A stretch of 64,000 nt of DNA from Patescibacteria group bacterium. GTDB lineage: Bacteria > Patescibacteriota > UBA1384 > UBA12157 > JAENIV01. Of this stretch, positions 3,536 through 63,140 are shown piece by piece; positions within the stretch are counted from its first letter, which is position 1, and the number at the start of each line of letters is the position of its first letter. The position numbers and the translations under genes are program-made. Under the pieces are notes generated by a model. The model made no database searches. It had not been told where the DNA came from and saw nothing but the letters and a program-made list of their open reading frames with translations. Where the stretch lies: the NCBI GenBank assembly GCA_049515915.1, contig JBEKTP010000003.1:735-64734 (forward strand), given 5' to 3'.

Positions 3536-3584
3536 TAGCCAAGTTCGAGGCGGACAGCCACTTGGCTACAGCGAGATCGTTTGT

Positions 3585-3791
3585 CTAGGTGGAGACCAAA
3601 CCTCCATCCTTGCTTTGGGATAGGGTCTGGTCGGGATGCGGGCTTTTTCCCGCGTCCATCTCAGCGAGGAGTTCCGCGGTGGTCGTCTTGGACATCTTGG
3701 CGACGAAGGCCATGTCAATTCCTGGTTTCAAACATCGCTCTTCGTAGGACTTGACCTTGGCCTCTTGGGCCGGCGGGAGAGCGTCTCGCAT
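3585..3791 (-). CDS. hypothetical 68-aa protein (GC-rich cassette)
   Basis: ORF with GGGGGTGAGAG upstream of the ATG. Third gene of a minus-strand small-ORF operon. Confidence 0.4.
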   Translation of the reverse strand: MRDALPPAQEAKVKSYEERCLKPGIDMAFVAKMSKTTTAELLAEMDAGKSPHPDQTLSQSKDGGLVST

Positions 3792-3794
3792 CTC

Positions 3795-3914
3795 TCACCC
3801 CCTTTCTTTCCGTGGTGCTCTGGCGCTGATCGCCATAAAGAGGAAAAGGAACATCGGTCCTCCAATGGCAAAGGCTCCAAAAGCCCAACGAATCACCACA
3901 GCGAGTCCGTTCAT
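3795..3914 (-). CDS. 39-aa hydrophobic peptide (MNGLAVVIRWAFGAFAIGGPMFLFLFMAISARAPRKERG)
   Basis: Hand-translated, below the ORF-track cutoff. GGAAAGGAAAGG immediately upstream of the ATG. Single predicted TM helix. Stop lies 3 nt before the start of the 68-aa ORF. Confidence 0.35.
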   Translation of the reverse strand: MNGLAVVIRWAFGAFAIGGPMFLFLFMAISARAPRKERG

Positions 3915-4092
3915 CGGCCTTTCCTTTCCGCTGTTGGCTACATCTCTATCGGGTGTAGTGCGATGAGGCACTTGTTCACATCACCCGGATGATCCGTAAG
4001 AAACAGACAGTCACACAGGCGATGCCAATCACCAGACGATATCCTCTCTCAATGAGAGGATTGGATCTGAACCAAAACTTGCTGAAGATCGC

Positions 4093-4164
4093 TTACAGGA
4101 TCAGGAAAATCCCGCAAAGAGCGCAGAAAAGCGTCAGTCCGACAGAATAGACCGTTGGCCACAT
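4093..4164 (-). CDS. 23-aa hydrophobic peptide (MWPTVYSVGLTLFCALCGIFLIL)
   Basis: Hand-translated. GGAGG 7 nt upstream of the ATG. TTGAAC-16/17-TATAAT promoter at about 4225-4252 (minus strand) in host-like AT-rich DNA directly upstream. Confidence 0.3.
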   Translation of the reverse strand: MWPTVYSVGLTLFCALCGIFLIL

Positions 4165-4275
4165 CGTCACGACCTCCGAAAGTTGAATTGTGAGGTAGCC
4201 CCTCAATTCTATTATGGCTCGCAAGGAATTATAAATACAAGAGATTGGAGTTCAAAAATAGATTCTTATTAATTC

Positions 4276-5244
4276 TTATATTATCAAACCCATTTTTTCT
4301 TTAACATCAGTAATGGTTTTTTGGGCGGCGGGAGCCAGTTTCAGAGCGCCGTCTTTAAGGATTTTCTTGATATCTTCGTCAGAAATTTCTTGGCGCTTCT
4401 TTTGAATCGGCTCGAGTTCTTTAATGATCGCTTCGGCGAGAGCGGGTTTAAACTCCGAATATTTAATCGTGCCGGCTTGGCGCTCTTTCATATATTTTCC
4501 TTCAGCTTCATGGCCGGCAAAAATTCCTATCAGCCCGATCAGGTTTTTGGTTCCTTCGGAAATCTCCTCACCTTGGCCAGTGTCGGTGGTTGCGGCCGCA
4601 ATTTTTTGGCGAATAATATCTGGACTATCAGAAAGCGCGATGTAGGTTCCCGGCGTATTTGATTTACTCATCTTACCTTTACCGTCGAGGCCGATGATTC
4701 TTTTCGTTTCTGTCAATATGGGTTTTGGTTCGATGAAAGTTTGGCCAAATTTGGAATTGAATCGCCGGGCCAAATCGCGGGCGAGCTCGATATGCTGGGT
4801 TTGGTCTTCACCGACAGGTACCCCTTCACCGCCATAAATTAAAATATCCGCCGCCATTAAAATAGGGTAATCGAAAAGACCCATCAATTGTTCGTGTTTT
4901 CCATGCTTTGCAGATTTTTCTTTAAACTGGGTCATCCGATTAAGTTCCCCCATCGTGGTAATTGTATTTAAGAGCCATGCCAATTCGGTGTGTTCGGGGC
5001 GGTCGGATTGCAAAAATAAGATCGATTTGGCTGGATCAATGCCCACGGCCAAAAGGTCTTTGGCGGCATTTAAAATTCGCGCGGGCATTTCTTTCGGATC
5101 GTAGTCAACGGTAATGGCATGGTAATCGACGACCCCAAAAATACATTCATTGTCATCTTGAAGAGCGACCCAGTTTTTCATGGCACCTAAATAATTGCCA
5201 ATATGAAACTCGCCCGAAGGCTGGATGCCGGAAAAAATTTTCAT
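4276..5244 (-). CDS. trpS: tryptophan--tRNA ligase
   Basis: HIGN (HIGH-type) motif in FSGIQPSGEFHIGNYLG, and KMSKS. Start set at MKIFSG (GGAGG upstream), not the longer ORF-track start. Confidence 0.9.
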   Translation of the reverse strand: MKIFSGIQPSGEFHIGNYLGAMKNWVALQDDNECIFGVVDYHAITVDYDPKEMPARILNAAKDLLAVGIDPAKSILFLQSDRPEHTELAWLLNTITTMGELNRMTQFKEKSAKHGKHEQLMGLFDYPILMAADILIYGGEGVPVGEDQTQHIELARDLARRFNSKFGQTFIEPKPILTETKRIIGLDGKGKMSKSNTPGTYIALSDSPDIIRQKIAAATTDTGQGEEISEGTKNLIGLIGIFAGHEAEGKYMKERQAGTIKYSEFKPALAEAIIKELEPIQKKRQEISDEDIKKILKDGALKLAPAAQKTITDVKEKMGLII

Positions 5245-5329
5245 AAAAAACCTCCAATATCGTTTATTTAATATTATCACAGGTGTGCTACGATACAAGC
5301 GAAAAATAATTTAAAATTTAAATCTCAAA

Positions 5330-6036: not shown

Positions 6037-6924
6037 ATGACAAGGTTAGAGAAATCGATCTTAAAAACATTAGCTTTTTTTGATTTAAACCAAAGAGCAC
6101 TTGAGCTGGACGAAATTTGGCAATTTTTGTATCGAACTCGAGCAAGCAAGATTCAGGTTTTAATTGGTTTGCAGAATTTAGAAAAAAATGGCAAAATTTC
6201 GAAAAAAAATGAAAAATATTTTTTGGCCGGGCGAGGCAGAGTCGTGGTCGCTGAACCCGAAAAAGAAAAACTTTTGGTCGAGCGCTGGAAAAAAGTGGAG
6301 CGGTTCTCAAAAATTTTCCGTCACCTTCCGTTCGTCCAAAACGTCTCGGTGATTGGCTCGCTTGCGACGGGTGCTTCAAGTGAAGGATCGGATATTAACT
6401 TATTTATTATCGCTCGAAAACATCGGACGTGGCTAGCGAAAATCTTCGTGATGATCACCTTGGAAATTTTTGGGCAAAATAAAAATCGCTGGTACCGCGC
6501 GGGCAAGTTCTCGGTTGATTACGTTTTAGATGAGGGAGATCTTGATTTAGCCAAGCGCCAATTCAAAAAAGATAATTATTCAACTTACGCTCTGGCTAAT
6601 CTTACCCCGGTTTTGGACCGGGGTGGTTATAAAAAACTTCTGGCCGCTAACCTTTGGATTCAGCGCGAATTTCCCAATTGGCAAATTAAAGAAGTCAATT
6701 CGACCTCTTCTTGTTATACACCTTTAGAGAAGTTTATTTTAAGTAAATTCGGCCAGGCGGTCTGGGACTTAATTAAAAAGCTTAAACGAGTCAAAATTTG
6801 GTGGGATTACTTCAAAAATAAATCCCACGAGGCGGAACAAAAGTTAATTAAGTATCGAATCGAAGTTAAAAGGAGAGAATACCATCATAAGTGGCACAAA
6901 ATAGTTGAAAAAATTGTCCGTTAA
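6037..6924 (+). CDS. nucleotidyltransferase-domain protein with N-terminal winged-helix-like region (paralog of previous)
   Basis: GSLATGASSEGSDINLFII motif, same architecture as 5330-6001. Tandem paralogs. Confidence 0.5.
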   Translation: MTRLEKSILKTLAFFDLNQRALELDEIWQFLYRTRASKIQVLIGLQNLEKNGKISKKNEKYFLAGRGRVVVAEPEKEKLLVERWKKVERFSKIFRHLPFVQNVSVIGSLATGASSEGSDINLFIIARKHRTWLAKIFVMITLEIFGQNKNRWYRAGKFSVDYVLDEGDLDLAKRQFKKDNYSTYALANLTPVLDRGGYKKLLAANLWIQREFPNWQIKEVNSTSSCYTPLEKFILSKFGQAVWDLIKKLKRVKIWWDYFKNKSHEAEQKLIKYRIEVKRREYHHKWHKIVEKIVR

Positions 6925-7190
6925 TAACCAAAATTTGGCCCTTGACAAAAACAATGCCTATTCTACAATGGGTAATGATGGAAGTAGGTTATCCCCCTTC
7001 CTGCTTCCATCGCTAAAGAAACTTCATCAATGACTTGAAGTTTTTTTAGATCTTTGATAAAATAAAATGCTGTAAAGTATAGCCTCGGGTCGCCCTGTTT
7101 GCTCAGGGGCATTTCCTCGGCTAAAAAATATTTTTGAAGATTAAAGAGCAAGCAAATTAGAAATTTAAAATTTAATTTTTTGGAGGTAAT

Positions 7191-7478
7191 ATGAAAATTA
7201 AACCTTTAGCCGATCGCGTGGTGCTTAAACCACAAGAAGAAGAATCCAAAACAAAATCCGGCATTATTATTCCCGACACGGCCAAAGAAAAATCTCAGAA
7301 GGGAAAAGTCTTATCGGTCGGTCCAGGTAAATTTAGCAAAGGCGAAATCGTTCCTTTGACGGTCAAAGTTGGCGATATCGTTTTGTATAAGGAATACGGC
7401 GGCGAGGAAATTAAAATGGACGGCGAAGATGTCGTCATTATTAAAGAAGAAGATATCCTGGCGATTATCGAAGGATAA
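7191..7478 (+). CDS. groES: co-chaperonin GroES
   Basis: 95 aa, [14 protein letters not shown]...[11 protein letters not shown]...VGDIVLY, classic Cpn10. Confidence 0.92.
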
Positions 7479-7549
7479 TCACCCAATCTAATTAATAAAA
7501 TCCAAATTCCAAATAATTTAAAATTGGAGCTTTGGACTTTGGAATTTAA

Positions 7550-9199
<1,650 letters not shown>

Positions 9200-9320
9200 G
9201 CAGGAGACTTACAAATCTCAAAATTTAGGTAAAAAACACTATAAAAGAAGACCCTTCTGAGCTTGCTTTGGGCGGCTTGCCCTGAGCGTAGTCGAAGGGT
9301 TTTCTTTTGATTAGAAAAAG

Positions 9321-9382
9321 GGCGGCCAGCTGCGTTGCAGCTGGCCGCCTGTAGTCCGTGCATCGCACGGACGGGGACCTCA
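9321..9382. repeat. double-hairpin element, family A copy 1
   Basis: GGCGGCCAGCTGC-gtt-GCAGCTGGCCGCC (13-bp stem), then GTCCGTGC-atc-GCACGGAC, then GGGGACCTCA. Near-identical copy at 11203-11269. On the minus strand it is followed by a T-run, so it looks like an intrinsic terminator. Confidence 0.7.
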
Positions 9383-9462
9383 AGTTCGTAGTTCAGCTCG
9401 ACCGAAATCTTGACATCATGGTTTGGCCGAGGCTGTACTGTGCACGGCGTGATACTACTACG

Positions 9463-10242
9463 TTATCGCTCTGGCCCTTGTAACGTATCGCTCCTGAAGT
9501 GCCTTCTCATCGGTGGAACGAACGGCGGCGAGTAGCTGACCGAGACAAAAACTCTTTTTTGCTCGGCCAACAGCGCCTTGATCGCTTGATCGATCACTTC
9601 CACGTTCTCCGTGAGGTTCTCTATGAGAATCTTGCGGATGGCACGTTCCAGATCCTCGCACATGGAATCAAAGCCTGTTGGAGAGAAATCGTAATCGGTG
9701 GCCTTGATGAAAAACGATGCCTCCGCTCTTCGGTCCATGGAGTCTTTCGCTTCGATTCCACTGATGGTTCTGGCGGTGGAATAGAAGATGTGACCCTTTA
9801 GTCGCCAGATCCAGCTGCCACAGAAAGGCCAGTGGGTCTTCTTACCGATCCAGATGCCGACGATCTCTTTGCCTTTCTGGGCCACCTCGCGGGCTTTGAA
9901 TAATTCATCGAGCTCGTCGATGAACTGTCTCTTGTATCCCAGGTAGGCGATATTCACGCACAGGGCACACACGATCATCGCCACAATCCACATAATCACT
10001 CGCGTTGTAATAATCGGATGGTTGTAGTGGGCGGCGAGGATAGCCGCGGCAAGCACGGCCAGTGAGCCCAAGATAGTCCAAGCGCCGATTGAACGATCGT
10101 ATTTCTTGGACCGCTCGTTGATATGCGGGTACTCACGGTACCACTCGATCACGTTACCCCACCGGAGTGGGAGAGAGCCTGTCGAGCCAAGAGTGACGAT
10201 CGTCAGAACTACCTCAATCACGTCTATCAGCTTTTCCGGCAT
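9463..10242 (-). CDS. hypothetical membrane protein (about 3 TM N-terminal, about 150-aa soluble C-terminal domain), GC-rich cassette
   Basis: Start set at MPEKLIDV with AAAAGGAG upstream. Own TTGACA-17-TATATAAT promoter at about 10317-10348 (minus strand). Confidence 0.6.
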   Translation of the reverse strand: MPEKLIDVIEVVLTIVTLGSTGSLPLRWGNVIEWYREYPHINERSKKYDRSIGAWTILGSLAVLAAAILAAHYNHPIITTRVIMWIVAMIVCALCVNIAYLGYKRQFIDELDELFKAREVAQKGKEIVGIWIGKKTHWPFCGSWIWRLKGHIFYSTARTISGIEAKDSMDRRAEASFFIKATDYDFSPTGFDSMCEDLERAIRKILIENLTENVEVIDQAIKALLAEQKRVFVSVSYSPPFVPPMRRHFRSDTLQGPER

Positions 10243-10316
10243 TTGCGGCTCCTTTTGCCAGCAATCGGTTGGATTGTGGGGCATTGGCCCCACCGATTGC
10301 CGAGGCATTCGATTGT

Positions 10317-10348
10317 ATTATATAAGAGTTCTCAAGTCAATTGTCAAC
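10317..10348 (-). promoter_or_regulatory. sigma70-like promoter (TTGACA-17-TATATAAT) for 9463-10242
   Basis: Read on the minus strand. Preceded by the GGCCCGCCACCCGGCGGGCC hairpin that terminates the upstream gene. Confidence 0.5.
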
Positions 10349-10408
10349 AAAGTTAATAAGATGAAGGCCCGCCGGGTGGCGGGCCGAGAAGTCATGATAG
10401 TCGATGAA

Positions 10409-11083
10409 CTATCGGTGGAGGATCTTCGGCGCGGACATAATCCGCTTGGCTGCTTCGCCCGCGCGGTCGCTGGGTTCACCGAGCTGTTCTTTCACTGCGT
10501 CGTTGTAGAGAGATTCTGTAATCGCGAGCAGAGCATAGTGCGCTTCCGCGAGCGACTCATCGCGCGAAAAGGTATCGTCTGCGCGGATTCTCGGGATGAT
10601 CAACTCAATCTCGCCACGGTTGAAGAAGAAGCCCCATACGGGAGTGATCCCGAAGCCCGCCAGTTCGATACTGGTTGGGTAGAATTCGCCAAGGTGCTTT
10701 TTCATCCCGGGGCACTTGGCGAAAGCTTCTTTACCCAGCTCGTGATAGATCGTCGCCATCGCCCAGACGGCTGCCAGGTCAGTGAACGTCCGTGTGTGAA
10801 ACTGGGCGCTCATTGTTCTTTCGCCCTCAACTTTGACAGCGCGGAGTTGACCTTGGCTATGTTCTCCGCGGATCAGCGCCCCGTGGTGATAGTAGTCAAA
10901 CAACAGGATTGTTCGGGGGCTTAAGGGGATACTCTTACCGCGCGGAGGGGTTCCATCGAAACGGGCCAGCTGGAGGCCGAATTCCGCTGATTCGAGTTGA
11001 CCGATATCGATGTTGTCATCACTGGGCGAGAAGTCGGGCAATCGAAACCGGTTAATCTCGACGACAAGAAGCGTATGTCTCAT
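10409..11083 (-). CDS. hypothetical 224-aa protein (GC-rich cassette)
   Basis: AAAGAGGAAG RBS. TTGACA-16-TATATT promoter (minus strand) at about 11140-11175. No recognisable domain. Confidence 0.5.
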   Translation of the reverse strand: MRHTLLVVEINRFRLPDFSPSDDNIDIGQLESAEFGLQLARFDGTPPRGKSIPLSPRTILLFDYYHHGALIRGEHSQGQLRAVKVEGERTMSAQFHTRTFTDLAAVWAMATIYHELGKEAFAKCPGMKKHLGEFYPTSIELAGFGITPVWGFFFNRGEIELIIPRIRADDTFSRDESLAEAHYALLAITESLYNDAVKEQLGEPSDRAGEAAKRIMSAPKILHR

Positions 11084-11202
11084 CTTCTTCCTCTTTCGGG
11101 CGAGGTGCCCACGGTGTATTCCGGTCAGAGCCGGTAGCTAAAATATATTTTAAAATGAGAATTTGTCAACAAAAAACAGATTTTTTCTCTTAGATAAGAG
11201 AA

Positions 11203-11269
11203 GACGGCCAGCTGCGTTGCAGCTGGCCGTCTGTAGTCCGTGCAAAACATCACACGGACGGGGACCTCA
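11203..11269. repeat. double-hairpin element, family A copy 2
   Basis: GACGGCCAGCTGC-gtt-GCAGCTGGCCGTC. Relative to copy 1 it has a G-C to A-T compensatory pair in the stem. Second hairpin GTCCGTG-loop10-CACGGAC, then GGGGACCTCA, whose last 3 nt are the stop codon of 11267-12100. Confidence 0.7.
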
Positions 11270-12100
11270 TTTGAAATGCAAACCCAACTCTGCATCCGTA
11301 ACCGGCGTGGCCCCATCAGCGGCCGCAGACTCCTCGCTAGTTTCGCCTTTCGGCGGGATGTTGAAGATCTCCGCGCCGAGCTTGATACTCTTGACTCTGG
11401 CGATGGCTCGAGGATCAAATCGAAAGCTGTTGACCAGGTTGCAGACCCTCTCTTCGGTGGGATTTTCGAGCTCGAGGAGAGCCTCGATGAACGCCTTGTA
11501 GGTTTGGTCGACGATTACATCGTAGCTTTCTGGCGGTATCGCCCAGAAATTGTCAAAGCTGGAGTCGGGGATGAAGCTCGTCACAGTAGAGGCAACGGCC
11601 CCGCCTTTCTCCGGTGCCAGAGCCAGCGGCTTCAGCGGAAGGGCTTTCTCGCGTTTGGTGCGCACGGCGCCGTAGAAGAACATATTGCCATCGATGTTGG
11701 CCGACTTGCCCGGTTCGAGGTAGATCCAGGTCTTTCCGAGGATCAACCAGCCTGGGCCATAAGCCCTTCCCCAATGTTCCTCGGGCTCGGGTGCTGTGAA
11801 CCAGCCGAACAGCCGACCCAAAAGGGGGAGGACCGTTGCCGTCAACGCGAAGACGATGGTGAGAGAGCGTGATTTCTCATGATTGGTGGGTAGTGTGAAT
11901 GTTGCTAACAAGCATACGACAGCAAGAGCTAGGACGATCACAGAGACACTAATGGCGGTGTTTGTGATCACACACAGTGCCATGTCGTTGTGGCCCGGCA
12001 CTTTTCCCCTTAGGGTGGTTCTCCCATGGATTTCGCGCATCAGATAGATGCTGACGACAGCGAGAACCAAGACAGTCAGACAAAAGGCGACTTCGGACAT
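11267..12100 (-). CDS. hypothetical membrane protein (4 TM N-terminal, soluble C-terminal domain), GC-rich cassette
   Basis: Start set at MSEVAFCL with AAAGGAGAG upstream. Stop codon embedded in the end of repeat A2. Confidence 0.6.
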   Translation of the reverse strand: MSEVAFCLTVLVLAVVSIYLMREIHGRTTLRGKVPGHNDMALCVITNTAISVSVIVLALAVVCLLATFTLPTNHEKSRSLTIVFALTATVLPLLGRLFGWFTAPEPEEHWGRAYGPGWLILGKTWIYLEPGKSANIDGNMFFYGAVRTKREKALPLKPLALAPEKGGAVASTVTSFIPDSSFDNFWAIPPESYDVIVDQTYKAFIEALLELENPTEERVCNLVNSFRFDPRAIARVKSIKLGAEIFNIPPKGETSEESAAADGATPVTDAELGLHFK

Positions 12101-12240
12101 CGCGGCTCTCCTTTGCTTGCCGGGGTTGTATGGGGCGGTATGGCCCGCCGGCAAGACAAGGAATGGGGCGAAACGCTCCGACGGAGCTTGAGCCGATTAT
12201 ATCTCGAGAACGTTTAAATGTAAATAGTATTTAATATCGT

Positions 12241-12489
12241 TTATACCAAAAGATGGAAGGCGGAAGGATTGAAGACGTAGTAAGTTCGATAATCGGTTTC
12301 TTTGGCTTTCAAAAAATGATGCTTGGCGAAATTGCGGCAATAATATTGCGTCGCGCCAATGGACCAGCCTAATTCTTTGGCCACTTCCGCTTGGTAAAAC
12401 TCTTTTTTTTCTTCGCAAAATCGCAAAAACTGGGCTTTCTTTTTGCCAAAGAGAAATTCAAATTGGCCGGTGTCTTTAATCTTGATCAT
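12241..12489 (-). CDS. small putative winged-helix DNA-binding protein
   Basis: 82 aa, AT-rich host-like codon use. Helix-turn-helix-like segment (QAEVAKELGWSIGATQYY). Weak call. Confidence 0.35.
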   Translation of the reverse strand: MIKIKDTGQFEFLFGKKKAQFLRFCEEKKEFYQAEVAKELGWSIGATQYYCRNFAKHHFLKAKETDYRTYYVFNPSAFHLLV

Positions 12490-12575
12490 TTTGCTCCTTG
12501 TAAGTTCGATTAAAAATTAATCTATGTCGTTAGATTTATAATATCGTGAGATCAAAAAAATAGCAAATCAATATT

Positions 12576-12902
12576 CTAAGCAAAATCGGGCAGGTGAATT
12601 TTATGCTTGTCGATTACATGGCCTTCATTGGCAAGCAATTTTTCTTTGGCCTTGATTCCCTTGGCATATTCGCCGACAAAATTATCGGAACGAATGACGC
12701 GATGGCAGGGAACCGGTTCGAATTCTTTCATTGGTAGCTGCCAATTTTTAGCACGATAATTACGATTCAAAATTGAACCGACGGCACGGTAGGCCTGAGG
12801 GCTTCCGGCTTTTTTAGCGACTTGAGAATAAGTCATGACTTTACCTTTAGGAATCTGCGCTACAATATTGAGAACTTTACGCGAAAAATCTTTTTTAAGC
12901 AT
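12576..12902 (-). CDS. ogt: methylated-DNA--protein-cysteine methyltransferase DNA-binding/active-site domain protein (MGMT/Ogt-like)
   Basis: PCHRVI active-site motif with downstream helix-turn-wing. The 108 aa correspond to the C-terminal catalytic domain only. Confidence 0.7.
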   Translation of the reverse strand: MLKKDFSRKVLNIVAQIPKGKVMTYSQVAKKAGSPQAYRAVGSILNRNYRAKNWQLPMKEFEPVPCHRVIRSDNFVGEYAKGIKAKEKLLANEGHVIDKHKIHLPDFA

Positions 12903-12960
12903 GGCACTTTCAATATAGGCTTCCGAAATAAGTTGTCAATTAAACGAAATCGACTCCGCC

Positions 12961-13398
12961 TCAGAAAGGCGGAGTCGTCGATAGACCCAGTCGGTTACTG
13001 GGGAAGAAATAAGTACACCGATTCAGCCGGAACGGCTGAGGGTGATCGATGCGGGTGTACCGGGGAACGCCGCTGAAATCGAGCGCCCCGATTTCCCCCG
13101 GACCTTTGTGGATGCCACCGCCCCAGTTGAGATCAGTGCTGGTAAACCAGCACCAGAAAGCTCCGATGGTGGCCATGATGGTTCCGGTAATCCAGCCGTC
13201 CGGCGTGCCTTGTCCCAGTATGGGAGAGATCAGAGCCACTAAGAAGCTGACCGAACAGCCTACCACGGCACAGATTTCATCCCGCCGGCTTGGTCGCGGC
13301 CTGATGGGAAGCATCAAGTAGCAGTAGGCAAGCAGCCACCGCCAGTACAAAGCGATGGCGGCCGCGATGATCGCAACCAGCCAGAGTAACCAGAGCAT
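12961..13398 (-). CDS. hypothetical polytopic membrane protein (GC-rich cassette)
   Basis: Start at MLWLLWLV with GAAAGGAGAGG upstream. Perfect TTGACT-17-TATAAT promoter (minus strand) at 13455-13483. GC hairpin CGACTCCGCC...GGCGGAGTCG overlaps the stop. Confidence 0.55.
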   Translation of the reverse strand: MLWLLWLVAIIAAAIALYWRWLLAYCYLMLPIRPRPSRRDEICAVVGCSVSFLVALISPILGQGTPDGWITGTIMATIGAFWCWFTSTDLNWGGGIHKGPGEIGALDFSGVPRYTRIDHPQPFRLNRCTYFFPSNRLGLSTTPPF

Positions 13399-13454
13399 CA
13401 GCGCCTCTCCTTTCTTGGTTCGACCTTTCACTTCAAGATCACGGCATAATCAAA

Positions 13455-13483
13455 ATTATACTTGGTAGAAGAGATCAAGTCAA
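13455..13483 (-). promoter_or_regulatory. sigma70 consensus-like promoter TTGACT-17-TATAAT driving 12961-13398
   Basis: Read on the minus strand. Lies in AT-rich DNA immediately outside the GC-rich CDS. Confidence 0.5.
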
Positions 13484-13505: not shown

Positions 13506-14021
13506 TTAGGCCGCCGCGCCGGCGACGCCCGAAGGAATCTCAACGTCATCCATAAAAATAATCGCATTTTTTTCAATTCGGACGACTTTTTCGGCCGGAT
13601 AAATGCGCGCTTTCAAAACTAAATCTTTAAGATAATATTTGATGACACAGTTTGTTTCAGTCTCGATTAAGAAATTTTCAATGCTACCCAAATTTTTGCC
13701 CGATTCGGTTTTGGCTTTGAGACCGAAAAGATCAAAATCTTGGGTTAAAACTTCCTTTATTCGGACGATATCGATAGGGTTAATCAGATTGTTAGGCGAT
13801 TCGGTGACAAGGCCATTTCTATCCCAATCGCGGATGTCGACGGAGGAAATAACTTTTTTAGGAGAAAAAATTCCGCCGGCGCTCACTAAAAATCCTAAGA
13901 CAGAACCGCTCTCTGGGTCAACGAGAATTTTGCGAATTTCGGCAATTTTCGATTGCGTGTCGAGGGCGGCAATCGGAAGCCCGATTAAGTTTTTGGCTTC
14001 AATAAACATAACTGATTTCAT
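13506..14021 (-). CDS. PRC-barrel domain protein (two PRC-like repeats)
   Basis: Repeated (I/V)xGLPI...D.ESG..LG.LV... pattern typical of PRC barrels. Moderate confidence. Confidence 0.45.
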   Translation of the reverse strand: MKSVMFIEAKNLIGLPIAALDTQSKIAEIRKILVDPESGSVLGFLVSAGGIFSPKKVISSVDIRDWDRNGLVTESPNNLINPIDIVRIKEVLTQDFDLFGLKAKTESGKNLGSIENFLIETETNCVIKYYLKDLVLKARIYPAEKVVRIEKNAIIFMDDVEIPSGVAGAAA

Positions 14022-14104
14022 TGTATGAAATTAGAACTAAAAACGCAAAACTAAAAACTTAAAATTGAAGCTCGAAAGAAATTAACATCTTGATAAGTCG
14101 GTGA

Positions 14105-14405
14105 TAATATGATATATTCAGAAAAGGTTAGGGCCATTGCAATCTGGTGGAAAAGGGAGTCGCCTATGAGGAGTTGGTGATGTCGCTATCGTTGGGGCAA
14201 AGTTTTATGTAGGACGGCGATATCGCCGCGGTCACCTTACGGGAGGTGAAGAAAGTGCACCACAATGGTGTACGACGCCCGCGTCCGCAGGCCAAGGGAG
14301 CCTGGCAGGGCGACCATTCCTTGTTCGGCGTAGTTGTGTCCAATCCGAGTTTATCGAGTCACGACTCACAGAGTCCAGGGTATGTATTACCTGGACTCAT
14401 TTTTT
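14105..14405 (+). ncRNA. rnpB: candidate RNase P RNA (reduced, bacterial type A-like)
   Basis: No ORF in about 300 nt. Four motifs lie in the same order as in E. coli rnpB. GGAAAAGGGAGUCGCCUAUGAGGAG resembles GGAAAGUCCGGGCUCCAUAGGGCAG. GGUGAAGAAAGUGCACC...GGUGUAC resembles GGUGAAAGGGUGCGG..GCGCACC. GCAGGCCAAGGGAG resembles GCAAGGCCAAAUAGGGG. CACGACUCACAGAG resembles CACGACAGAA. Ends in a GTCCAGG...CCTGGAC hairpin plus TTTTTT. A P4 pairing could not be verified by hand. Confidence 0.35.
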
Positions 14406-14415
14406 ATTAGAACAT

Positions 14416-14973
14416 TTAAGCTCTCGCCACATATTCGCCGGTACGAGTATCGAGAACAATTTTATCGCCCTCTTTGATAAATAAAGGTACTTGGATTTGA
14501 GCGCCGCTCTCCAGCGTGGCCGGTTTGGTCACTGTCGAGGTGGTGTTACCCTTAAATCCTGGTTCAGTGTAAGTTACTTCGAGAGCAATTTTTATTGGTA
14601 AATTGATATTGATTGGCTGATTATCAAAATACAAAATATCGACATCGCTGCCCTCTTTTAAATAGCGAGAGACATCGCCAAGTTGGTTTTTGGTAAGTGA
14701 AAACTGTTCGAAATTATTCGAATCCATAAAATAATAACTGTTGCTATCTTTATAGAGATATTGGGCTTTTTTGGTTTCAAGTTCGGCTTCTTCGAGCTTT
14801 TCGGCGCCGGCAAAAGTTTTTTCGATAATCGTGCCGGAAATTAAATTACGCATTTTCGTGCGCATAATTCCACCCCCGCGGCCGAGTTTGGAATGCTGGG
14901 CAAAAATAACGGTGTAAGGCGTGCCGTCAAAATTAACTTTAATACCAACTTTTAGATCGTTGATAGTTAACAT
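14416..14973 (-). CDS. efp: elongation factor P
   Basis: 185 aa, KVG..V.FDG.PY.V..AQHSKLGRGGGIMRTKMRNL family signature. Confidence 0.92.
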   Translation of the reverse strand: MLTINDLKVGIKVNFDGTPYTVIFAQHSKLGRGGGIMRTKMRNLISGTIIEKTFAGAEKLEEAELETKKAQYLYKDSNSYYFMDSNNFEQFSLTKNQLGDVSRYLKEGSDVDILYFDNQPININLPIKIALEVTYTEPGFKGNTTSTVTKPATLESGAQIQVPLFIKEGDKIVLDTRTGEYVARA

Positions 14974-17616: not shown

Positions 17617-18255
17617 TTATTTAAAAAGACTGTTTTCCTCAAAAACTAAATTTTTAAATATCTCGTAATATGACAGATCGTTGTACTCATATTTTCTAAA
17701 AATCGACCAGCTTATAAAATCAACGGCTTGTAAAGATTTTTCTTCAAAAGGTGTTTTGATATCGACTTCAATATCCAAATTGTGATTGTTTTTAATTTGA
17801 TCCTTGAGGTAATTTTTAAAATTTAAATTTAGAAATTTATTTGTTTCTTTGCGAGAAGCAACTAAATTAATTTCTTTAGTAAAATCGATTAATTTTTTTG
17901 AACAAATTCTGTCTAATAGGATATTTGTGACATAGTTATATAAGACATCTTTTTGGTTTTGGAGTTTGGTATAAACTTTGCTCTTGTTAAGATAAATTGC
18001 CAAAATTTTGATCTCTTTTTGAGCAAGCTGCTTGAGTAATCTTTTGCGCGTTATCGGTTTTTCGTGAAAGCAATGAAGTACTCCGCCTTTTTGTTTATGC
18101 TTCTTTTTAAGAGCCGAATGTATTTTTTTGACTATTTTTTCAATCGGACGCTTATTTTGGGCAAATAGAAATGTGATAATAAAGAATTTAGAAGTTCGTT
18201 TCTTACGAAAATCAAAACCAAGATCGCCGCTTTCATCAAGAAAAATATATGACAT
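17617..18255 (-). CDS. DUF3800-family protein
   Basis: N-terminal MSYIFLDESGDLGF signature typical of DUF3800. AT-rich. CGCACAAGG hairpin terminator at about 17570-17615. Confidence 0.5.
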   Translation of the reverse strand: MSYIFLDESGDLGFDFRKKRTSKFFIITFLFAQNKRPIEKIVKKIHSALKKKHKQKGGVLHCFHEKPITRKRLLKQLAQKEIKILAIYLNKSKVYTKLQNQKDVLYNYVTNILLDRICSKKLIDFTKEINLVASRKETNKFLNLNFKNYLKDQIKNNHNLDIEVDIKTPFEEKSLQAVDFISWSIFRKYEYNDLSYYEIFKNLVFEENSLFK

Positions 18256-18365
18256 AGGTCAATTATACCTGAAATAACTTCTCAGTTAAAGATGTTGTCA
18301 TATTGACGATGCAGTTTTATAGTGGTATATTATTATGTTCTGACAACGAAAGGAGGTACGGTTTA

Positions 18366-18632
18366 ATGGATTGGAACCCAGCTGCGCAATATCGTGAGTC
18401 GCTCGGGGAATGGGCGGATGCTAACGCAGGTTCCGCTGATGTCCCCACGCGAAACGCCGTGGAAAAAGTCCGTGAGGTTCTCTGCATCGAAGATGATCAG
18501 CGGTTTCTGGTGGAAGCACGGGTCGCTTTCAGCATCTTCCTTACAGACACCAATCCATTCGCGAAGGAACGAACCCCGCTCGACGAGCTACATAGTATCG
18601 TCTGCGGTATCAGCGAGACCCTGATGTGGTAG
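18366..18632 (+). CDS. hypothetical 88-aa protein (GC-rich cassette)
   Basis: Start MDWNPAAQ with AAAGGAGGT upstream. Followed by GGGTGGGT...ACCCACCC hairpin plus T-run terminator at 18672-18705. Confidence 0.45.
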   Translation: MDWNPAAQYRESLGEWADANAGSADVPTRNAVEKVREVLCIEDDQRFLVEARVAFSIFLTDTNPFAKERTPLDELHSIVCGISETLMW

Positions 18633-18671
18633 GGGTCTCTGTCTGATAATGAGTTCCGATCATTTCCCGTC

Positions 18672-26792: not shown

Positions 26793-26796
26793 GAGG

Positions 26797-46870: not shown

Positions 46871-46871
46871 A

Positions 46872-58950: not shown

Positions 58951-59118
58951 TTTTCACCTCAAAATTTATTTGTCTTAGATAATCTTACCAAATTTGACGA
59001 AATTCTCAAGCGATTTTTGACCAAAGTGATTTTTTGGAGGGGGACGCCTTGATTATTCGTTAGTTTTATGGTAAAGTATGGTCAGAAATCGCCGTCATCA
59101 ACTCTGAGCGAGGTGAAG

Positions 59119-59541
59119 ATGATGTCTGATTCAAAGAAGACGTGGATTGGGGCGTTGATTTTTGTGACACTGATGGTATGCTGGTATTTCGTGACACGGC
59201 CCTCTGCGACAAGCCAGCCGCCGGGCGCAAGTGCAGTCGCGGCTATTCGGGCTATCGGTCTAGGCGGGCCGTCTTTCGTCCACACATGGACAGGGACGAA
59301 CGAGTTCGGGATGAGCGTGATTCTTATCATCAACGACGGCGGCATGTGTTCGTTCGGCGGTGATCCGCTCAAGTGGAGAGTCGAGGGCAGTACCCTCGTC
59401 ATCTACAAGGACGGGTCCAACTACACTCTCAGAGGGACTCTCTCGAGCGACGGGCACGGGTTGGAGCTGGCCATTCCGTGGAACAGCCCAATTACCGGAA
59501 AGCCGGAGGTACGAACCTACAACTTCGTCCGGCAAGGGTGA
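59119..59541 (+). CDS. hypothetical membrane-anchored 140-aa protein (GC-rich cassette)
   Basis: GAGGTGAAG RBS. N-terminal TM, beta-rich extracytoplasmic domain. Confidence 0.45.
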   Translation: MMSDSKKTWIGALIFVTLMVCWYFVTRPSATSQPPGASAVAAIRAIGLGGPSFVHTWTGTNEFGMSVILIINDGGMCSFGGDPLKWRVEGSTLVIYKDGSNYTLRGTLSSDGHGLELAIPWNSPITGKPEVRTYNFVRQG

Positions 59542-59627
59542 GAAGAATGCGGCGACCAAGGCGTTGTTGTCACCTTCCGCCGCGACGAAAATATCTTGAT
59601 CGGTACTGGAGGGGCGATGCAAGCCGG

Positions 59628-59687
59628 ACTCGGCGGGCTTTAGCCCGCCAGACGAGCTCTGGGGATTTCCCGGAGCTCGTTTTCGTT
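59628..59687 (+). repeat. double-hairpin terminator-like element, family B copy 1
   Basis: GGCGGGC-ttta-GCCCGCC, then ACGAGCTC..GGGGATTTCCC..GAGCTCGT, then TTTTCGTT. Near-identical copy at 61036-61094. Confidence 0.65.
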
Positions 59688-60106: not shown

Positions 60107-60263
60107 TTATCAAATTTTTAATTGAACTCACTAATTATTAAGGGTAATTTTACTAGTCGGCGTTTGTTTTGGCGTTGGGTCTTGATATTTAAGGAATTTT
60201 GAGGTAGAATATAGCCAGAATTACCGATTGTACCACACTCTGCTAAAGAAAGGCGAAAAGACG

Positions 60264-60998
60264 ATGAGGAAGAGAGCAGGGCTGTTGATGTTGCTGGCAG
60301 TGGTTGTTGGTCTGACGATGATACTGGCGGGCTGCGGCGGACACTCGTCGGCGGCGGCGCTGGTGGCCAAATCCGGTGTGACGGCCGAACCTCCGGAAGG
60401 CGCTCCGAGGACGCCATTCAGCCAGGTCAGGACATCAGCCGATGATTCGAATTCGGGGAATTTGGCGCAGTCAGCGAAGGTGGCCAAGATAGCATCTACT
60501 ACTGAAGCCGCGCAGGCTCTCGACCACTTCACGGTTTCGTTGTACGGACTTTCGAGTATGAACGGAGATTCCGAAATAACCGCGCCGCCGGGGTGTGTGA
60601 TCTTTCCATGGATTCATGTGAGAAACATGGGAACCGTGCCAATCACGGGGATCAAGATCGCGATCCGTTCTAATCCCGCCATCACGGTGGCTTATCCGGA
60701 TGATCCTTTCAACAAGAAGTTCATTAAGGCTTTGACGACGTCAGGGGTACCACTTCTCGATGGGCAAACCCGGAAGAATACCATTGGACCGTACAACTCG
60801 AAGTACTATCGGCAAGGTGCCGAAGCAATTTGGTCAGCGCTTGTTGCCGGGCCCAGTGGTGTTGAGGGCGTGATGCCAATTCAGCTGAGCAAACATCTGA
60901 TGCCGGGTACAGACGAACAGCTCCGGTTTACTCTGATCTATAAAGGAGCTGAGAAGGTCGTAGCGGTGGCGACGGTACACGTGATGCACCCAGAATAG
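60264..60998 (+). CDS. hypothetical lipoprotein (GC-rich cassette)
   Basis: Signal peptide with lipobox LAGC (MRKRAGLLMLLAVVVGLTMILAGCGG). Followed 38 nt later by repeat B2. Confidence 0.55.
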   Translation: MRKRAGLLMLLAVVVGLTMILAGCGGHSSAAALVAKSGVTAEPPEGAPRTPFSQVRTSADDSNSGNLAQSAKVAKIASTTEAAQALDHFTVSLYGLSSMNGDSEITAPPGCVIFPWIHVRNMGTVPITGIKIAIRSNPAITVAYPDDPFNKKFIKALTTSGVPLLDGQTRKNTIGPYNSKYYRQGAEAIWSALVAGPSGVEGVMPIQLSKHLMPGTDEQLRFTLIYKGAEKVVAVATVHVMHPE

Positions 60999-61035
60999 CG
61001 AACACTTCGTCGTGACGTGACACGTTGCGGATCGA

Positions 61036-61094
61036 ACTCGGCGGGCTTTAGCCCGCCAGACGAGCTCTGGGATTTCCCGGAGCTCGTTTTCGTT
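61036..61094 (+). repeat. double-hairpin terminator-like element, family B copy 2
   Basis: Same sequence as 59628-59687 apart from a single G deletion in the second loop. Confidence 0.65.
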
Positions 61095-61184
61095 TATCTA
61101 AATTATTATTATGACAGCAATTCTTGTTAATTTCTCGAACTTGTGTTACAATGCGACCAGTTCTTGCACATCAAGGAGAGCGTC

Positions 61185-61457
61185 ATGGAAAGCGGTACGG
61201 CGAAGACGTTAGGAGTTATTTCAGTTGTACTGGGGGCGCTAACAGCCGGTGTCGAAGTGATTGGCGGGCTTTGCTGCGGCTGGATTGTCTGGCCGTTGGC
61301 GATTGCCGCCATCATCCTGGGCATTCTGGCGTGGACCAGCGCCCGGGGCGACCAGACGGCCGCGACTCTGGGCAAGATCGGGATCTGCTTGAGTTTAATC
61401 GTCCCTATCTGGCAGCTGCTGACCGCCACGATCCTGGCCGGTCTTATCCATCGGTAG
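61185..61457 (+). CDS. small membrane protein (DUF4190-like)
   Basis: Two TM helices with CCGW motif. Immediately upstream of the DUF2752-like gene. Confidence 0.4.
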   Translation: MESGTAKTLGVISVVLGALTAGVEVIGGLCCGWIVWPLAIAAIILGILAWTSARGDQTAATLGKIGICLSLIVPIWQLLTATILAGLIHR

Positions 61458-61460
61458 TCA

Positions 61461-61796
61461 GTGATGGATGCGTCAGTCAGGCAAGGTCTGAAAGCGTCAT
61501 TCCTGATCATCGCCGCTATGATGGCGGCAATGATCGGAAGAAGCTTCCTCCTAAACAGCTTTGATCCGCACCTCGCAGTTCTCTCGCGAATTGCACCGAC
61601 AGTGCCGGGTCACCACTGCTTGCTCTGCGGTATGACTCACAGTTTTATGGCCATTTCGCGGGGTGACTTTGGCCAGGCGGTTGCCGCTAATCCCGGCGGC
61701 CCAATGCTGTACTTTTTCTTTTGTCTGGCGGCGGTTGGCGGTCTCGTCGTAATCTTTCGAGATTACATCACTCGCCACCACCGCCACAAGGCCTGA
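61461..61796 (+). CDS. DUF2752-family membrane protein
   Basis: HCLLCGMTHSF (CxxCG-M/L-T) signature between TM helices. Confidence 0.5.
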   Translation: MMDASVRQGLKASFLIIAAMMAAMIGRSFLLNSFDPHLAVLSRIAPTVPGHHCLLCGMTHSFMAISRGDFGQAVAANPGGPMLYFFFCLAAVGGLVVIFRDYITRHHRHKA

Positions 61797-61910
61797 CCGG
61801 CAACAGTCAGGCCTGCTGTTTTAAATTAAACATTAAAGGCACGAAATGTTTCCTTGACATCCTTAAAAAAGAAGAATATATTAAAGGGTCTCATCAAGGA
61901 GGTGAGAATA

Positions 61911-62180
61911 ATGGCCATTCGGCTTGAGCCAGTTGTTGTCGAGCATGCGTGCAATCTTGCGCGTCTCATCCGAGTGATTCATCACAAGTCAAAAACACAG
62001 GACGAAATCCAGGCGAAGTTCGAAGTCTATTTTCGTCGAGTGGCTGATGAGCTTGAAGCACTGGGTGAATCGCCCGACAAAGCCGCCGAGATGGCCCTGG
62101 CGGCAATCAGTGTACTTTTGGACGAGATGAACAAACGCGTCGTAACTAAGGAGGAGAGCAATCAGAGCCCAAGCGCATAG
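61911..62180 (+). CDS. hypothetical 89-aa protein (GC-rich)
   Basis: AAGGAGGTGAG RBS. Confidence 0.4.
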   Translation: MAIRLEPVVVEHACNLARLIRVIHHKSKTQDEIQAKFEVYFRRVADELEALGESPDKAAEMALAAISVLLDEMNKRVVTKEESNQSPSA

Positions 62181-62346
62181 CAAGGGCTCTGCTGTTTAAT
62201 AAAAAATAGTTTGTTAAGCCATTGACTTTTAGATAGTTTTATGGTATAGTTGGGAGTATTTTGAGAATAAGCCAGGCGTCGCCTGACCTCAAAAACACCA
62301 TCCCCGCCTAGCGGGGAGAAACTTGAAAACATAGGAGGAGCCCGCG

Positions 62347-62616
62347 ATGCGGATCTTAGTAGGAATTTGGTGCTACGTCATCGCGATAGCTTTTGTCGCT
62401 ATAATCTGGTACACAATTCCGATGATTATCGGCGACTTCGTTGACTATCGCGTGATGGGGCGATGGATTGATTTGTTCGGCGCCATCTTGGGTATTGTCC
62501 TTGTCGTAGTGCTGATAGCCGCAGCAACGTTTCTTTTCGTTTTGCCCTGGAAACCAGCTGTGATTAAGTTTGTGGTTGACTTGGATCCATCCGATACAGA
62601 AAGGGAAACTAAGTGA
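62347..62616 (+). CDS. hypothetical 2-TM membrane protein (GC-rich)
   Basis: TAGGAGGAG RBS. Stop overlaps the start of the next ORF. Confidence 0.4.
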   Translation: MRILVGIWCYVIAIAFVAIIWYTIPMIIGDFVDYRVMGRWIDLFGAILGIVLVVVLIAAATFLFVLPWKPAVIKFVVDLDPSDTERETK

Positions 62617-63140
62617 TCGAACGTTTGATGGCGATTGAAGATCCGGAAGAACAGGGCCGACTATGGGAATTCTATGACAGGATTTTCGGGCCGGTCAACG
62701 AGCTCACGCCTATCATTCAGACCTTTCCGAAGGCGAACCTCATCGGTTTTCTGGCGAGTTCGCGCGTGGTGAAGTTCGTTGTTCGTGAGGAAGGTGAAAT
62801 CGTCGCTCTGGCGATCATCGCTGATCCCGAAGAGTGGGACAGCTGGCTTTCGCCGGCGTATTTCGCCAAGAACTACCCAGGGAAGATCGTCTTCCACATC
62901 CCCGTCATCGCTATCGCGCCAGAAAAGCGCGGCAGTCTGTTGGCGGTCCGACTGGTGAAGGCGCTGATTAACGAAGCGCCTGCGAACGCGGTCGTCACTC
63001 TGACTCACTCCGAGCTGGTTAATCCACTTATGCTCAAGCTTGTTCAAGCCACCGGCGTGATGGATTACGCGGAGGGTGGGAAGATTGACGCCGAAGCCTG
63101 CCTCGTCTTTCAATGGAAAGACGGGAAGGTGCGAATCTAA
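62613..63140 (+). CDS. hypothetical protein, possibly GNAT-like fold
   Basis: IAIAPEKRGSLLAVRLVKALINEA resembles GNAT motif A. Weak. Confidence 0.35.
   Translation: MIERLMAIEDPEEQGRLWEFYDRIFGPVNELTPIIQTFPKANLIGFLASSRVVKFVVREEGEIVALAIIADPEEWDSWLSPAYFAKNYPGKIVFHIPVIAIAPEKRGSLLAVRLVKALINEAPANAVVTLTHSELVNPLMLKLVQATGVMDYAEGGKIDAEACLVFQWKDGKVRI

Follow-up and report, generated by a model that had tools for sequence, protein, structure and literature searches.

Small GC-rich genes in core-gene hot spots of an AT-rich Berkelbacteria-type genome

We analysed a stretch of 64,000 nucleotides from contig JBEKTP010000003.1 of a Patescibacteria group bacterium (hereafter the window), in which small GC-rich genes, here called cassettes, are interspersed among AT-rich housekeeping genes. 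In total, about 20 small GC-rich open reading frames (ORFs) are found in ~17 units. These are self-contained transcription units of one to three small genes, located at a limited number of hot spots between syntenic housekeeping genes. Their codon and dinucleotide usage follows a single regime, which corresponds roughly to a genome with 56% GC, and, as judged from sequence similarity, those that have homologues have them only in related genomes from the candidate phyla radiation (CPR), at the same or at another locus. On balance, we lean towards the view that the units belong to a clade-restricted, fast-evolving accessory gene pool, which sits in hot spots between core genes and has its own stable GC-rich regime.

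Composition of cassettes and core genes

The overall GC content of the window is 45.1%. A two-state hidden Markov model (HMM) applied to GC along the window separated AT-type stretches (GC 0.36-0.44) from GC-type stretches (GC 0.51-0.66), the main ones among the latter being 3500-4178, 8759-12195, 12951-13410, 14131-14380, 18373-20727, and 26056-29387 in the left part, and 35987-36601, 45770-46886, 59190-59679, 60252-61818, and 62687-63147 in the right part. A preliminary description of this DNA had reported discrete GC-rich segments amid an AT-rich core, and the main HMM blocks lie where it had placed them. The 19 cassette ORFs have a GC content of 0.563 and a GC content at third codon positions (GC3) of 0.677 +/- 0.047 (range 0.60-0.76), compared to 0.430 and 0.437 +/- 0.060 (range 0.29-0.57) for 48 housekeeping genes, with no overlap between the two GC3 ranges; the compositional difference that the preliminary description had proposed to check is thus readily measurable. 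The shift affects all three codon positions, and is reflected in codon choice (AAG for 67% of Lys in cassettes versus 18% in core genes, TTC for 72% versus 23% of Phe), in the use of TAA stops (21% versus 71%), and in amino acid composition, Lys, Asn, and Ile being depleted in cassettes and Arg, Pro, Trp, Cys, and His enriched.

Because this comparison had grouped the ORFs by GC, the test was repeated with a grouping by conservation, for which the loci of 14 relatives, fetched with core genes, were used. Between positions 375 and 38979 of the window, all 13 ORFs with GC3 >= 0.60 are without homologue in the relatives' loci, and all 25 conserved genes are at GC3 <= 0.54. The dinucleotide signature distance (delta*) between the cassette pool and the core pool is 231, compared to 24 +/- 8 for equal-sized core subsets and 38 +/- 11 between cassette halves, indicating that the cassettes are homogeneous among themselves. 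The core signature is itself unusual (AA/TT 1.46, CG 1.38, GC 1.25, AC/GT 0.67), and dinucleotide usage in the cassettes is near random apart from a low TA.

The edges of the units are sharp: mean GC falls from 0.57 over the first and last 100 nt of a unit to 0.39 over the adjoining 100 nt. These edges agree with the earlier proposal that composition switches at the boundaries of small ORFs. As a correction to it, some GC-type stretches lie within core genes, namely the C-terminus of GroEL, a Pro-rich region of an antitoxin-like gene, FtsX, and an insertion in XerC. This last is a 44-amino-acid in-frame insertion with 58% GC in the N-terminal domain of a XerC/D-like recombinase (31340-31470, minus strand). 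It is absent from the orthologues in the three closest genomes (L006, L007, L008) and is not clearly palindromic; GC-rich DNA therefore also occurs within a core gene. AT-type accessory genes, with 28% GC, are present as well: a DUF3800 gene (17617-18255), which is absent from the compared relatives, and a small ORF (52-312).

Hot spots in related genomes

A scan with YchF, covering one genome per species, gave as nearest genome a Candidatus Berkelbacteria metagenome-assembled genome (MAG; OY969116.1, a 929-kb chromosome) with 82% identity, followed by two Patescibacteria MAGs with 71% and 63% identity, which indicates that the window belongs to a Berkelbacteria-type CPR bacterium. Its core gene set, taken from translations and from Pfam labels on public gene calls, consists of typical housekeeping genes of reduced genomes: CTP synthase, phosphoglucomutase-like (pgm-like), TrpRS, GroES/GroEL, EF-P, S18, SSB, S6, YchF, IMPDH, a XerC/D-like recombinase, NDK, dTMP kinase, DnaE, L27, L19, GluRS, and thioredoxin reductase.

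When all window proteins were compared by tblastn with L006, L007, and L008, every core gene was found in the same order in these three loci, and none of the GC-rich ORFs had a match there. The distance from GroEL to a gene for a lineage-specific 82-amino-acid core protein is about 0.7 kb in L006 versus 3.0 kb in the window; from an ogt-like to a PRC-like gene it is about 10 nt versus 0.6 kb, and from YchF to IMPDH 0.7 kb versus 12 kb. A metagenome scan with the 82-amino-acid protein yielded eleven further relatives' loci with the same core order; a twelfth, L095, represents the window's own population. The hot spots, compared in up to 14 relatives and shared by ten relatives beyond the closest genome, are GroEL/82-amino-acid gene, ogt-like/PRC-like, PRC-like/efp, trpS/pgm, and the ychF side. 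In the relatives, the corresponding gaps contain different GC-rich ORFs (GC 0.53-0.62, GC3 0.54-0.73), in some cases AT-type genes, or are empty. Few gap ORFs are mutually related among the relatives, and those are far more divergent than the flanking genes, with 30% identity between L096 and L097 at the ogt/PRC spot and, at the GroEL spot, 49% between L097 and L101. Content at the GroEL hot spot differs even in L093 and L103, whose GroEL is closest (89-90%). The presence/absence polymorphism that had been suggested as a check is thus seen across 14 relatives, with core order kept and cassettes different or absent.

We also surveyed the ORFs of 65 loci in a uniform way. In 12 of 12 Berkelbacteria-type loci, one to four ORFs per locus exceed the median GC3 of the locus by at least 0.18; among the other ~52 loci (other Patescibacteria, Marinimicrobia, and others), L015 and L038 have one such ORF each and the rest none, and the outlier ORFs of these other loci are almost all low-GC. 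The phenomenon of GC-rich accessory ORFs is specific to the clade.

Two observations concern the relatives' hot spots. A GC-rich (0.59-0.62) stretch by the pgm-like gene is 91% identical at the DNA level in L098 (10068-10496) and L101 (17405-17740); the translations of a minus-strand ORF in it are 96% identical over 77 amino acids, yet this ORF looks non-coding. Nothing in the window corresponds to this stretch, which may represent a conserved RNA or a regulatory element. The sequence of L095 (JGI contig Ga0209777_10136430, 2,041 nt) is identical to window positions 12134-12997, and departs from the window about 20 nt into ORF 11267-12154, continuing into unrelated genes, which encode a membrane protein, a C_GCAxxG-like protein, and a regulator of the ArsR type. 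Either the short contig is chimeric, or the GroEL hot spot has undergone a replacement at strain level, and since a 2-kb contig could be chimeric, L095 was not used as evidence.

Homologues and origin of the cassette genes

The pyrF-like protein (27290-28162) has eight matches in 5.8 billion clusters. The close ones, 80, 74, and 67% identical, are located in AT-rich CPR contigs at other loci: the module is next to IMPDH in the window, between LytR and TsaE in L086, L091, and L092, and after NusA in L089. These homologues are GC-rich too, with 50-66% GC in backgrounds of 38-46%. The distant matches (about 35%) include fused PyrF-phosphoribosyltransferase (PRTase) proteins, and the one distant context examined, L094, is a CPR-type contig of ordinary composition in which the gene adjoins pyrD. 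The pyrF-like cassette gene is closest to CPR-type PyrF, not to a high-GC lineage, and appears to be of CPR descent. The closest genome, L006, has its own pair by IMPDH (6618-8131, GC 0.52-0.53), with a weakly orotidine monophosphate (OMP) decarboxylase-like gene and, by eye, a PRTase-like ORF, located on the other side of IMPDH and without detectable similarity to the window pair. In L091 (3365-4375), a gene for an aspartate/ornithine carbamoyltransferase adjoins the pyrF-like module. The variable pool of the clade seems to include remnant pyrimidine genes.

Three homologues were found for the GNAT-like protein (62613-63140), whose gene is directly upstream of a pyruvoyl arginine decarboxylase gene also in L090, L109, and L110. 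For the 224-amino-acid protein (10409-11083), an exhaustive search of 1.8 billion representatives gave three other 50%-identity clusters, 48, 47, and 38% identical; the 48%-identical copy is at the same GroEL hot spot in L093, and another copy is located by rpmE in L107. As the same families occur at different loci, transfer or relocation does take place. An AlphaFold2 model of this family, built on a 4-sequence alignment, had a predicted local distance difference test score (pLDDT) of 37 and was unusable. The lipoprotein (60228-60998) has no homologue in the 5.8 billion clusters and is an ORFan.

The three proteins with homologues have 3-7 of them each. All eleven homologue contexts that were inspected are AT-rich CPR contigs, and none is GC-rich; against these backgrounds the cassette homologue again stands out by its higher GC. 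No match was obtained by tblastn of 2,655 amino acids of concatenated cassette proteins against phage and plasmid collections, nor in scans of viral contigs with three cassettes. Searches of the cassette proteins against Pfam, NCBIfam, PADLOC, PHROGs, and PDB sequences gave no defence-system or phage families, and the few family matches were a weak OMP decarboxylase, a pyrE-type PRTase, DUF2752, and a weak GNAT. Our literature searches retrieved no description of GC-rich accessory genes in CPR genomes.

Persistence of the GC-rich composition

Orthologues of the pyrF-like gene, at a synonymous divergence (dS) of 1.1-3.7, have GC3 values of 0.69, 0.72, 0.79, and 0.55 in genomes of 38-46% GC. The GNAT-like gene has GC3 values of 0.68, 0.65, 0.49, and 0.53 in four syntenic genomes (dS 1.7-3.9), compared to 0.29, 0.27, 0.33, and 0.35 for the gene 70 nt downstream in the same genomes. 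Conservation at the same locus with the same composition, which the preliminary description had named as an observation that would contradict capture from a high-GC donor, is therefore what we find for the GNAT-like gene in these four genomes.

Polarised substitutions point in the same direction. The core third-position regime, estimated from three closely related loci (GC>AT 0.370 and AT>GC 0.271 per site), implies an equilibrium GC3 of 0.42, and a gene at GC3 0.67 evolving under it is expected to show 74% GC>AT among its GC<->AT changes. At third positions we counted 5 GC>AT versus 6 AT>GC in the GNAT-like gene (two outgroups) and 10 versus 13 in a 102-amino-acid ORF at the trpS/pgm spot, that is, 15 versus 19 when pooled (15/34, P = 3e-4). 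These counts suggest, short of proof, that third positions do not decay towards AT and hence that the genes are not ameliorating imports.

Signs of recombination accompany this pattern. Between the window and L090, dS of the GNAT-like gene is 0.50, lower than that of the flanking genes (0.9-2.6), which fits a later exchange between the two lineages, and the block-wise similarity among L098, L101, and L102 is mosaic.

Explanations for the GC-rich units

In the explanation that we prefer, recombination within the clade would bring about the gain, loss, replacement, and relocation of units. The route would be homologous exchange via the core genes on either side, probably following DNA uptake, together with occasional illegitimate insertion, and a gene-level force would keep the units GC-rich against the AT-biased core regime. 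Candidates for this force are selection acting on the DNA or the mRNA and recurrent re-seeding of the units from an unseen, GC-rich replicon within the clade. We are more tentative about a further idea, namely that a genome of less than 1 Mb holds two compositional compartments at separate equilibria, small, mobile, and fast-evolving genes that would be actively maintained at ~57% GC (GC3 ~0.68) and a core of ~43% GC (GC3 ~0.44). A possible cause of such compartments would be a gene-targeted GC-favouring process (selection on DNA or mRNA, targeted repair or conversion); another would be that the genes cycle through a GC-rich replicon or a partner organism, as yet unseen, that is specific to Berkelbacteria.

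Several points weigh against a stable, clade-restricted pool. No force is known or shown that holds GC3 high in single genes beside AT-rich neighbours. The polarised counts are small (34) and were obtained by parsimony with distant outgroups in recombining lineages, and for the trpS/pgm island the deviation over all positions is not significant (59 vs 42, P = 0.10). Most cassettes are ORFan-like sequences of untraceable origin; the in-depth searches covered four of the ~20 cassette proteins (pyrF-like, lipoprotein, GNAT-like, and 224-amino-acid), and a GC-rich donor could be missing from the databases or be too divergent for sequence searches. The clade survey includes three loci (L086, L089, L090) that were fetched through cassette homologues and are biased for this reason. 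Finally, no target duplications, flanking repeats, tRNA association, or dedicated recombinase were seen at the units.

A first alternative, which we consider unlikely, is that native fast-evolving genes became GC-rich in place, without transfer, through a local process such as GC-biased gene conversion (gBGC) where recombination is frequent, or through selection on mRNA stability or structure. The persistence of GC-richness over saturated divergence at a fixed locus (GNAT-like gene, 224-amino-acid family) would be explained in this way, as would AT>GC changes that are at least as frequent as GC>AT changes, and recombination among lineages is evident. The effects of bacterial gBGC are reportedly far smaller than the 24-point GC3 shift seen here. 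That gBGC-like effects on GC3 exist in bacteria is documented (Lassalle et al. 2015, PMC4450053), and the cassettes resemble such cases in that GC3 is raised in apparently recombining genes with a substitution pattern that is not AT-biased. They differ in that the effect is much larger and is confined to single sharp-edged units, the adjacent co-inherited gene being unaffected: a gene of GC3 0.68 lies 70 nt from one of GC3 0.29, which is hard to reconcile with kilobase-scale conversion tracts. The occurrence of the same families at different loci in different genomes also argues against an origin in place, and translational selection is unlikely because highly expressed core genes are not GC3-rich.

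The second alternative is the one put forward in the preliminary description, namely recent and repeated import of single genes from one or several high-GC donors, for example a host, with amelioration not yet complete. In the model of Lawrence and Ochman, compositionally atypical acquired genes are said to ameliorate towards the composition of the host genome, and the cassettes are similar to such genes in their atypical GC, codon usage, and dinucleotide signature and in their patchy distribution. Indeed, their codon, amino acid, and dinucleotide regime is homogeneous and foreign-looking, they are absent from the syntenic loci of relatives, and hot-spot content differs even between the closest relatives, at 89-90% GroEL identity. 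They depart from the model in that there is no decay, either at saturated dS, where the GNAT-like gene is syntenic in four genomes and still GC-elevated, or in the polarised third positions, which show no GC>AT excess, and in that no donor is detectable. For the four proteins searched in depth, no homologue was found in a GC-rich genomic context, all inspected contexts being AT-rich CPR contigs; the phage, plasmid, and viral searches were negative, the pyrF-like gene is CPR-type, and the trait is clade-wide. We therefore judge capture from a high-GC donor or host improbable, somewhat more so than an origin in place. In Saccharibacteria, acquired genes were assigned by their closest homologues in other phyla (McLean et al. 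2020, PMC7427843). The present case is similar in that a CPR genome contains lineage-specific acquired genes of possible relevance to lifestyle, and different in that the closest homologues all lie within the CPR clade and that most cassettes have none.

Terminator modules, leader sequences, and integron tests

The preliminary description had also raised the possibility of a dedicated cassette-capture mechanism, which our data do not bear out: integron-like or other site-specific capture is very improbable. Two features recall it. A tyrosine recombinase gene is present in the window (30594-31670, minus strand), and two neighbouring pairs of cassettes have near-identical double-hairpin 3' modules, which are loosely attC-like. 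The first module, of about 65 nt, occurs at 9321-9385 and 11202-11270 (about 95% identical), the second at 59628-59687 and 61036-61094 (98% identical), each 3' of two adjacent cassettes with unrelated ORFs. A search for paralogy between cassettes with the same module was negative. With two copies each in 64 kb and none in the relatives' loci, these canonical terminators are read as recently copied terminators and not as recombination sites. The recombinase, the only tyrosine recombinase of the window, scores 239 bits as XerC and 237 bits as XerD, but 135 bits against the integron integrase family TIGR02249, whose cut-off is 265, and it is conserved in synteny, beside the same genes, in L006, L007, and L008. 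No IntI, attI, or cassette array was found in the window, and no word or uptake-type motif is common to the cassettes as a set beyond the duplicated terminators. The cassettes are thus similar to integron gene cassettes in being small single-gene units, some of them with near-identical palindromic 3' modules, but they lack an IntI, an attI, an array, and, as judged by the word search, a common attC-like site. Moreover, each strand carries some of them, scattered between core genes, and their promoters are their own.

Alignments of filled and empty sites gave no insertion boundaries or target duplications, as the intergenic DNA is too divergent. The 5' untranslated region (UTR) is conserved between copies at different loci in the 224-amino-acid and pyrF-like families, the promoter hexamers being unalignable; what moves is therefore at least the gene together with its UTR. 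In the 224-amino-acid family, the conserved UTR (window 11084-11150, minus strand; L093 1300-1365; L107 1-42; L108 270-309) contains a short hairpin, with the loop sequence ACCUC, that immediately precedes the Shine-Dalgarno site (AAAGAGGAA). Its stem is GGGC/GCCC in three copies and GGCG/CGCC in L093, a compensatory change. The hairpin loop may pair with the Shine-Dalgarno site, and this structure could be a translational control element.

Coding status and transcription signals

Each unit has one frame with the coding pattern GC1 > GC2 << GC3. For the pyrF-like and GNAT-like genes, the ratio of nonsynonymous to synonymous divergence (dN/dS) is about 0.1-0.19 and homologues align over their full length. 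On these grounds, the units with homologues can be taken as real genes under purifying selection, which are often fast-evolving. In the region 19220-20670, the coding-like frames are 19331-19795 (minus strand) and 20153-20671 (plus strand), matching public gene calls. The plus-strand ORF 3636-3992, included in the preliminary description, has no coding-like GC1/2/3 pattern and is probably spurious.

An artefact, in the form of a chimeric assembly or of GC-rich non-coding DNA with chance ORFs (stop codons being AT-rich), which could be suspected from overlapping ORFs on both strands in 3500-4178, 19220-20670, 45857-46870, and 61124-61800 and from two segments without convincing ORF, is scarcely credible in view of the coding pattern, the homologue alignments, and the assembly data. 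Indeed, at least 16 contigs, which come from at least 5 samples (JGI, ENA, and Logan assemblies; JGI source samples 3300038426, 3300038418, 3300038415, and 3300039412), encode the pyrF-like cassette protein, and the five of these contigs that were examined are 99.98-100% identical to the window over up to 20.9 kb, across several GC switches. The same mosaic in all of these excludes the chimeric contig that the preliminary description had mentioned as a risk, and the phenomenon also shows up in ten other assemblies and in one closed chromosome. The population is present in many metagenomes, its L19 protein being indexed in 59 blocks of the collection.

In most units there is a promoter-like sigma-70 site that matches 10-11 of 12 positions and a terminator made of a GC hairpin and a T-run. 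The promoter TTGACT-17-TATAAT quoted earlier was confirmed at 13483-13455 on the minus strand. The claim that every cassette has its own promoter, Shine-Dalgarno site, and GC-hairpin terminator holds for most units but does not set them apart, since comparable promoters and terminators also flank core genes and are therefore a feature of the genome rather than of the cassettes. The unit map of the window agrees with the description in showing cassettes on both strands, interleaved with core genes. By contrast, membrane-anchored, secreted, or lipoproteins do not make up most of the cassette proteins, as had been stated; about half have a predicted transmembrane (TM) segment or lipobox, and the remaining ones are soluble, including the pyrF/pyrE-like pair and the GNAT-like partner of arginine decarboxylase.

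Known structured RNA genes were considered as an explanation of the GC islands and rejected, since Rfam, run over the whole window and two GC islands, gave only two tRNAs at the gathering threshold and, at the E-value threshold, a sub-threshold match to 6C RNA at 3498-3570 (minus strand; 41 bits, gathering score 47). The latter coincides with two strong terminator hairpins and is therefore probably a structural look-alike.

Comparison with known flexible-genome systems

Chromosomal hot spots of horizontal gene transfer (HGT) and genomic islets between core genes constitute the flexible genome of bacterial species, in which accessory DNA is usually AT-richer than the core. The units described here are similar in that the same pair of core genes flanks different content, with high turnover and many genes of unknown function, and they have little or no mobility machinery. 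They differ in being single genes of 0.5-2 kb instead of islands, in that the comparison is across species and genera of a CPR clade instead of strains, in that the accessory DNA is GC-richer than the core by about 13 points (24 in GC3), and in that the composition appears stable and not decaying. The direction of the offset, the fine grain, and the apparent persistence are unusual for the flexible-genome hot-spot pattern.

CPR bacteria have tiny genomes, their partners are unknown, and about half of their genes are without known function. The window shows that, in one such genome, composition alone is enough to identify the lineage-specific part, which is located at a small number of predictable hot spots and apparently exchanged within the clade. 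The result is a short delimited list of genes that are candidates for surface and niche-specific functions. Should the GC-rich state indeed be kept in place, the units would be a clean case against a single genome-wide mutation and repair regime combined with amelioration, and a natural system in which selection could be tested against biased conversion. On the practical side, binning by GC or k-mers and tools for HGT detection would flag or remove these genuine parts of the genome.

Catalogue of units

Between the pgm-like gene and trpS, the unit 3500-4260 (minus strand) has a promoter-like site at 4255-4228 and a fold z-score of -4.4, and looks like a minus-strand transcript with three tandem small ORFs (4224-4093, 3971-3795, and 3791-3585), two of which have a TM segment; a double-hairpin terminator at about 3570-3500 is common to it and the convergent pgm-like gene. 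At the nucleotide level, this trpS/pgm island is not similar to those that relatives have at the corresponding spot.

The next four cassettes are all on the minus strand. The cassette 9321-10340 (promoter 10340-10312, terminator module 9321-9385) encodes a 281-amino-acid protein with three TM segments (ORF 9463-10308, GC3 0.67), which is absent from 14 relatives. The cassette 10366-11169 (promoter 11169-11142, terminator 10385-10366) has hairpins in its 5' UTR and encodes the soluble 224-amino-acid protein (ORF 10409-11083). Three TM segments are again predicted for the 295-amino-acid product of cassette 11202-12224 (promoter 12224-12196, ORF 11267-12154, terminator module 11202-11270), and two for the 156-amino-acid product of cassette 12951-13483 (promoter 13483-13455, ORF 12961-13431, terminator 12977-12951), whose flanking core genes are separated by about 10 nt in L006. 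From the PRC-barrel-like gene to efp, there is a GC-rich island of 250 nt (14131-14380) without convincing ORF; it has no Rfam match (14000-14450 searched) and a fold z-score of only -1.9. A plus-strand promoter-like site is located at 14090-14118, and the efp terminator hairpin is at the right end of the island.

Further to the right, a small cassette ORF of 88 amino acids (18366-18632) in the plus-strand unit 18295-18632 is preceded by a promoter-like site at 18295-18323. It is followed by the cassette 18839-19255 (plus strand; ORF 18839-19207, 122 amino acids, GC3 0.72; terminator 19231-19255) and by the cassette 19279-19867 on the minus strand, with ORF 19331-19795 (154 amino acids; longest reading to 19867; GC1/2/3 = 0.59/0.41/0.73) and a terminator at 19304-19279, the plus-strand ORF 19220-19810 being probably spurious. 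The cassette 20095-20728 (plus strand) has a promoter at 20095-20123, an ORF of 172 amino acids at 20153-20671, and a terminator at 20701-20728.

All remaining units are on the plus strand. A two-gene cassette at 26175-27116 comprises ORFs 26175-26792 (205 amino acids) and 26797-27063 (88 amino acids) and a terminator at 27091-27116; the 88/102-amino-acid protein of the second ORF shares 31% identity with an ORF that L093 has at its GroEL hot spot. The pyrF/pyrE-like unit (27195-29340) has a promoter at 27195-27224, the pyrF-like gene at 27290-28162, and the pyrE-like gene at 28579-29340. A cassette at 36066-36602 encodes a 136-amino-acid protein with one TM segment (ORF 36066-36476, terminator 36571-36602). 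It adjoins a gene for an IS481-family transposase (34776-35843; NF033577, E 2e-55), which is absent from relatives and whose site is a hot spot between the antitoxin-like gene and an M16 peptidase gene. Two cassette ORFs (45932-46216 and 46289-46870) make up the unit 45932-46870 between rpmA (L27) and rplS (L19).

The last units include a signal-anchor protein cassette at 59049-59687, with an ORF from 59068 (or 59119) to 59541 and a terminator module at 59628-59687, and the lipoprotein cassette at 60182-61094, with a promoter at 60182-60210, an ORF from 60228 or 60264 to 60998 (lipobox LAGC), and a terminator module at 61036-61094. The unit 61124-61814 contains two membrane-protein ORFs, 61143-61457 and 61461-61796, the latter with DUF2752, and a terminator at 61789-61814. 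The GNAT-like gene (62613-63140) is the upstream partner of the pyruvoyl arginine decarboxylase gene (63211-63714), and has a GC3 of 0.68 compared to 0.29 for this neighbour 70 nt away.

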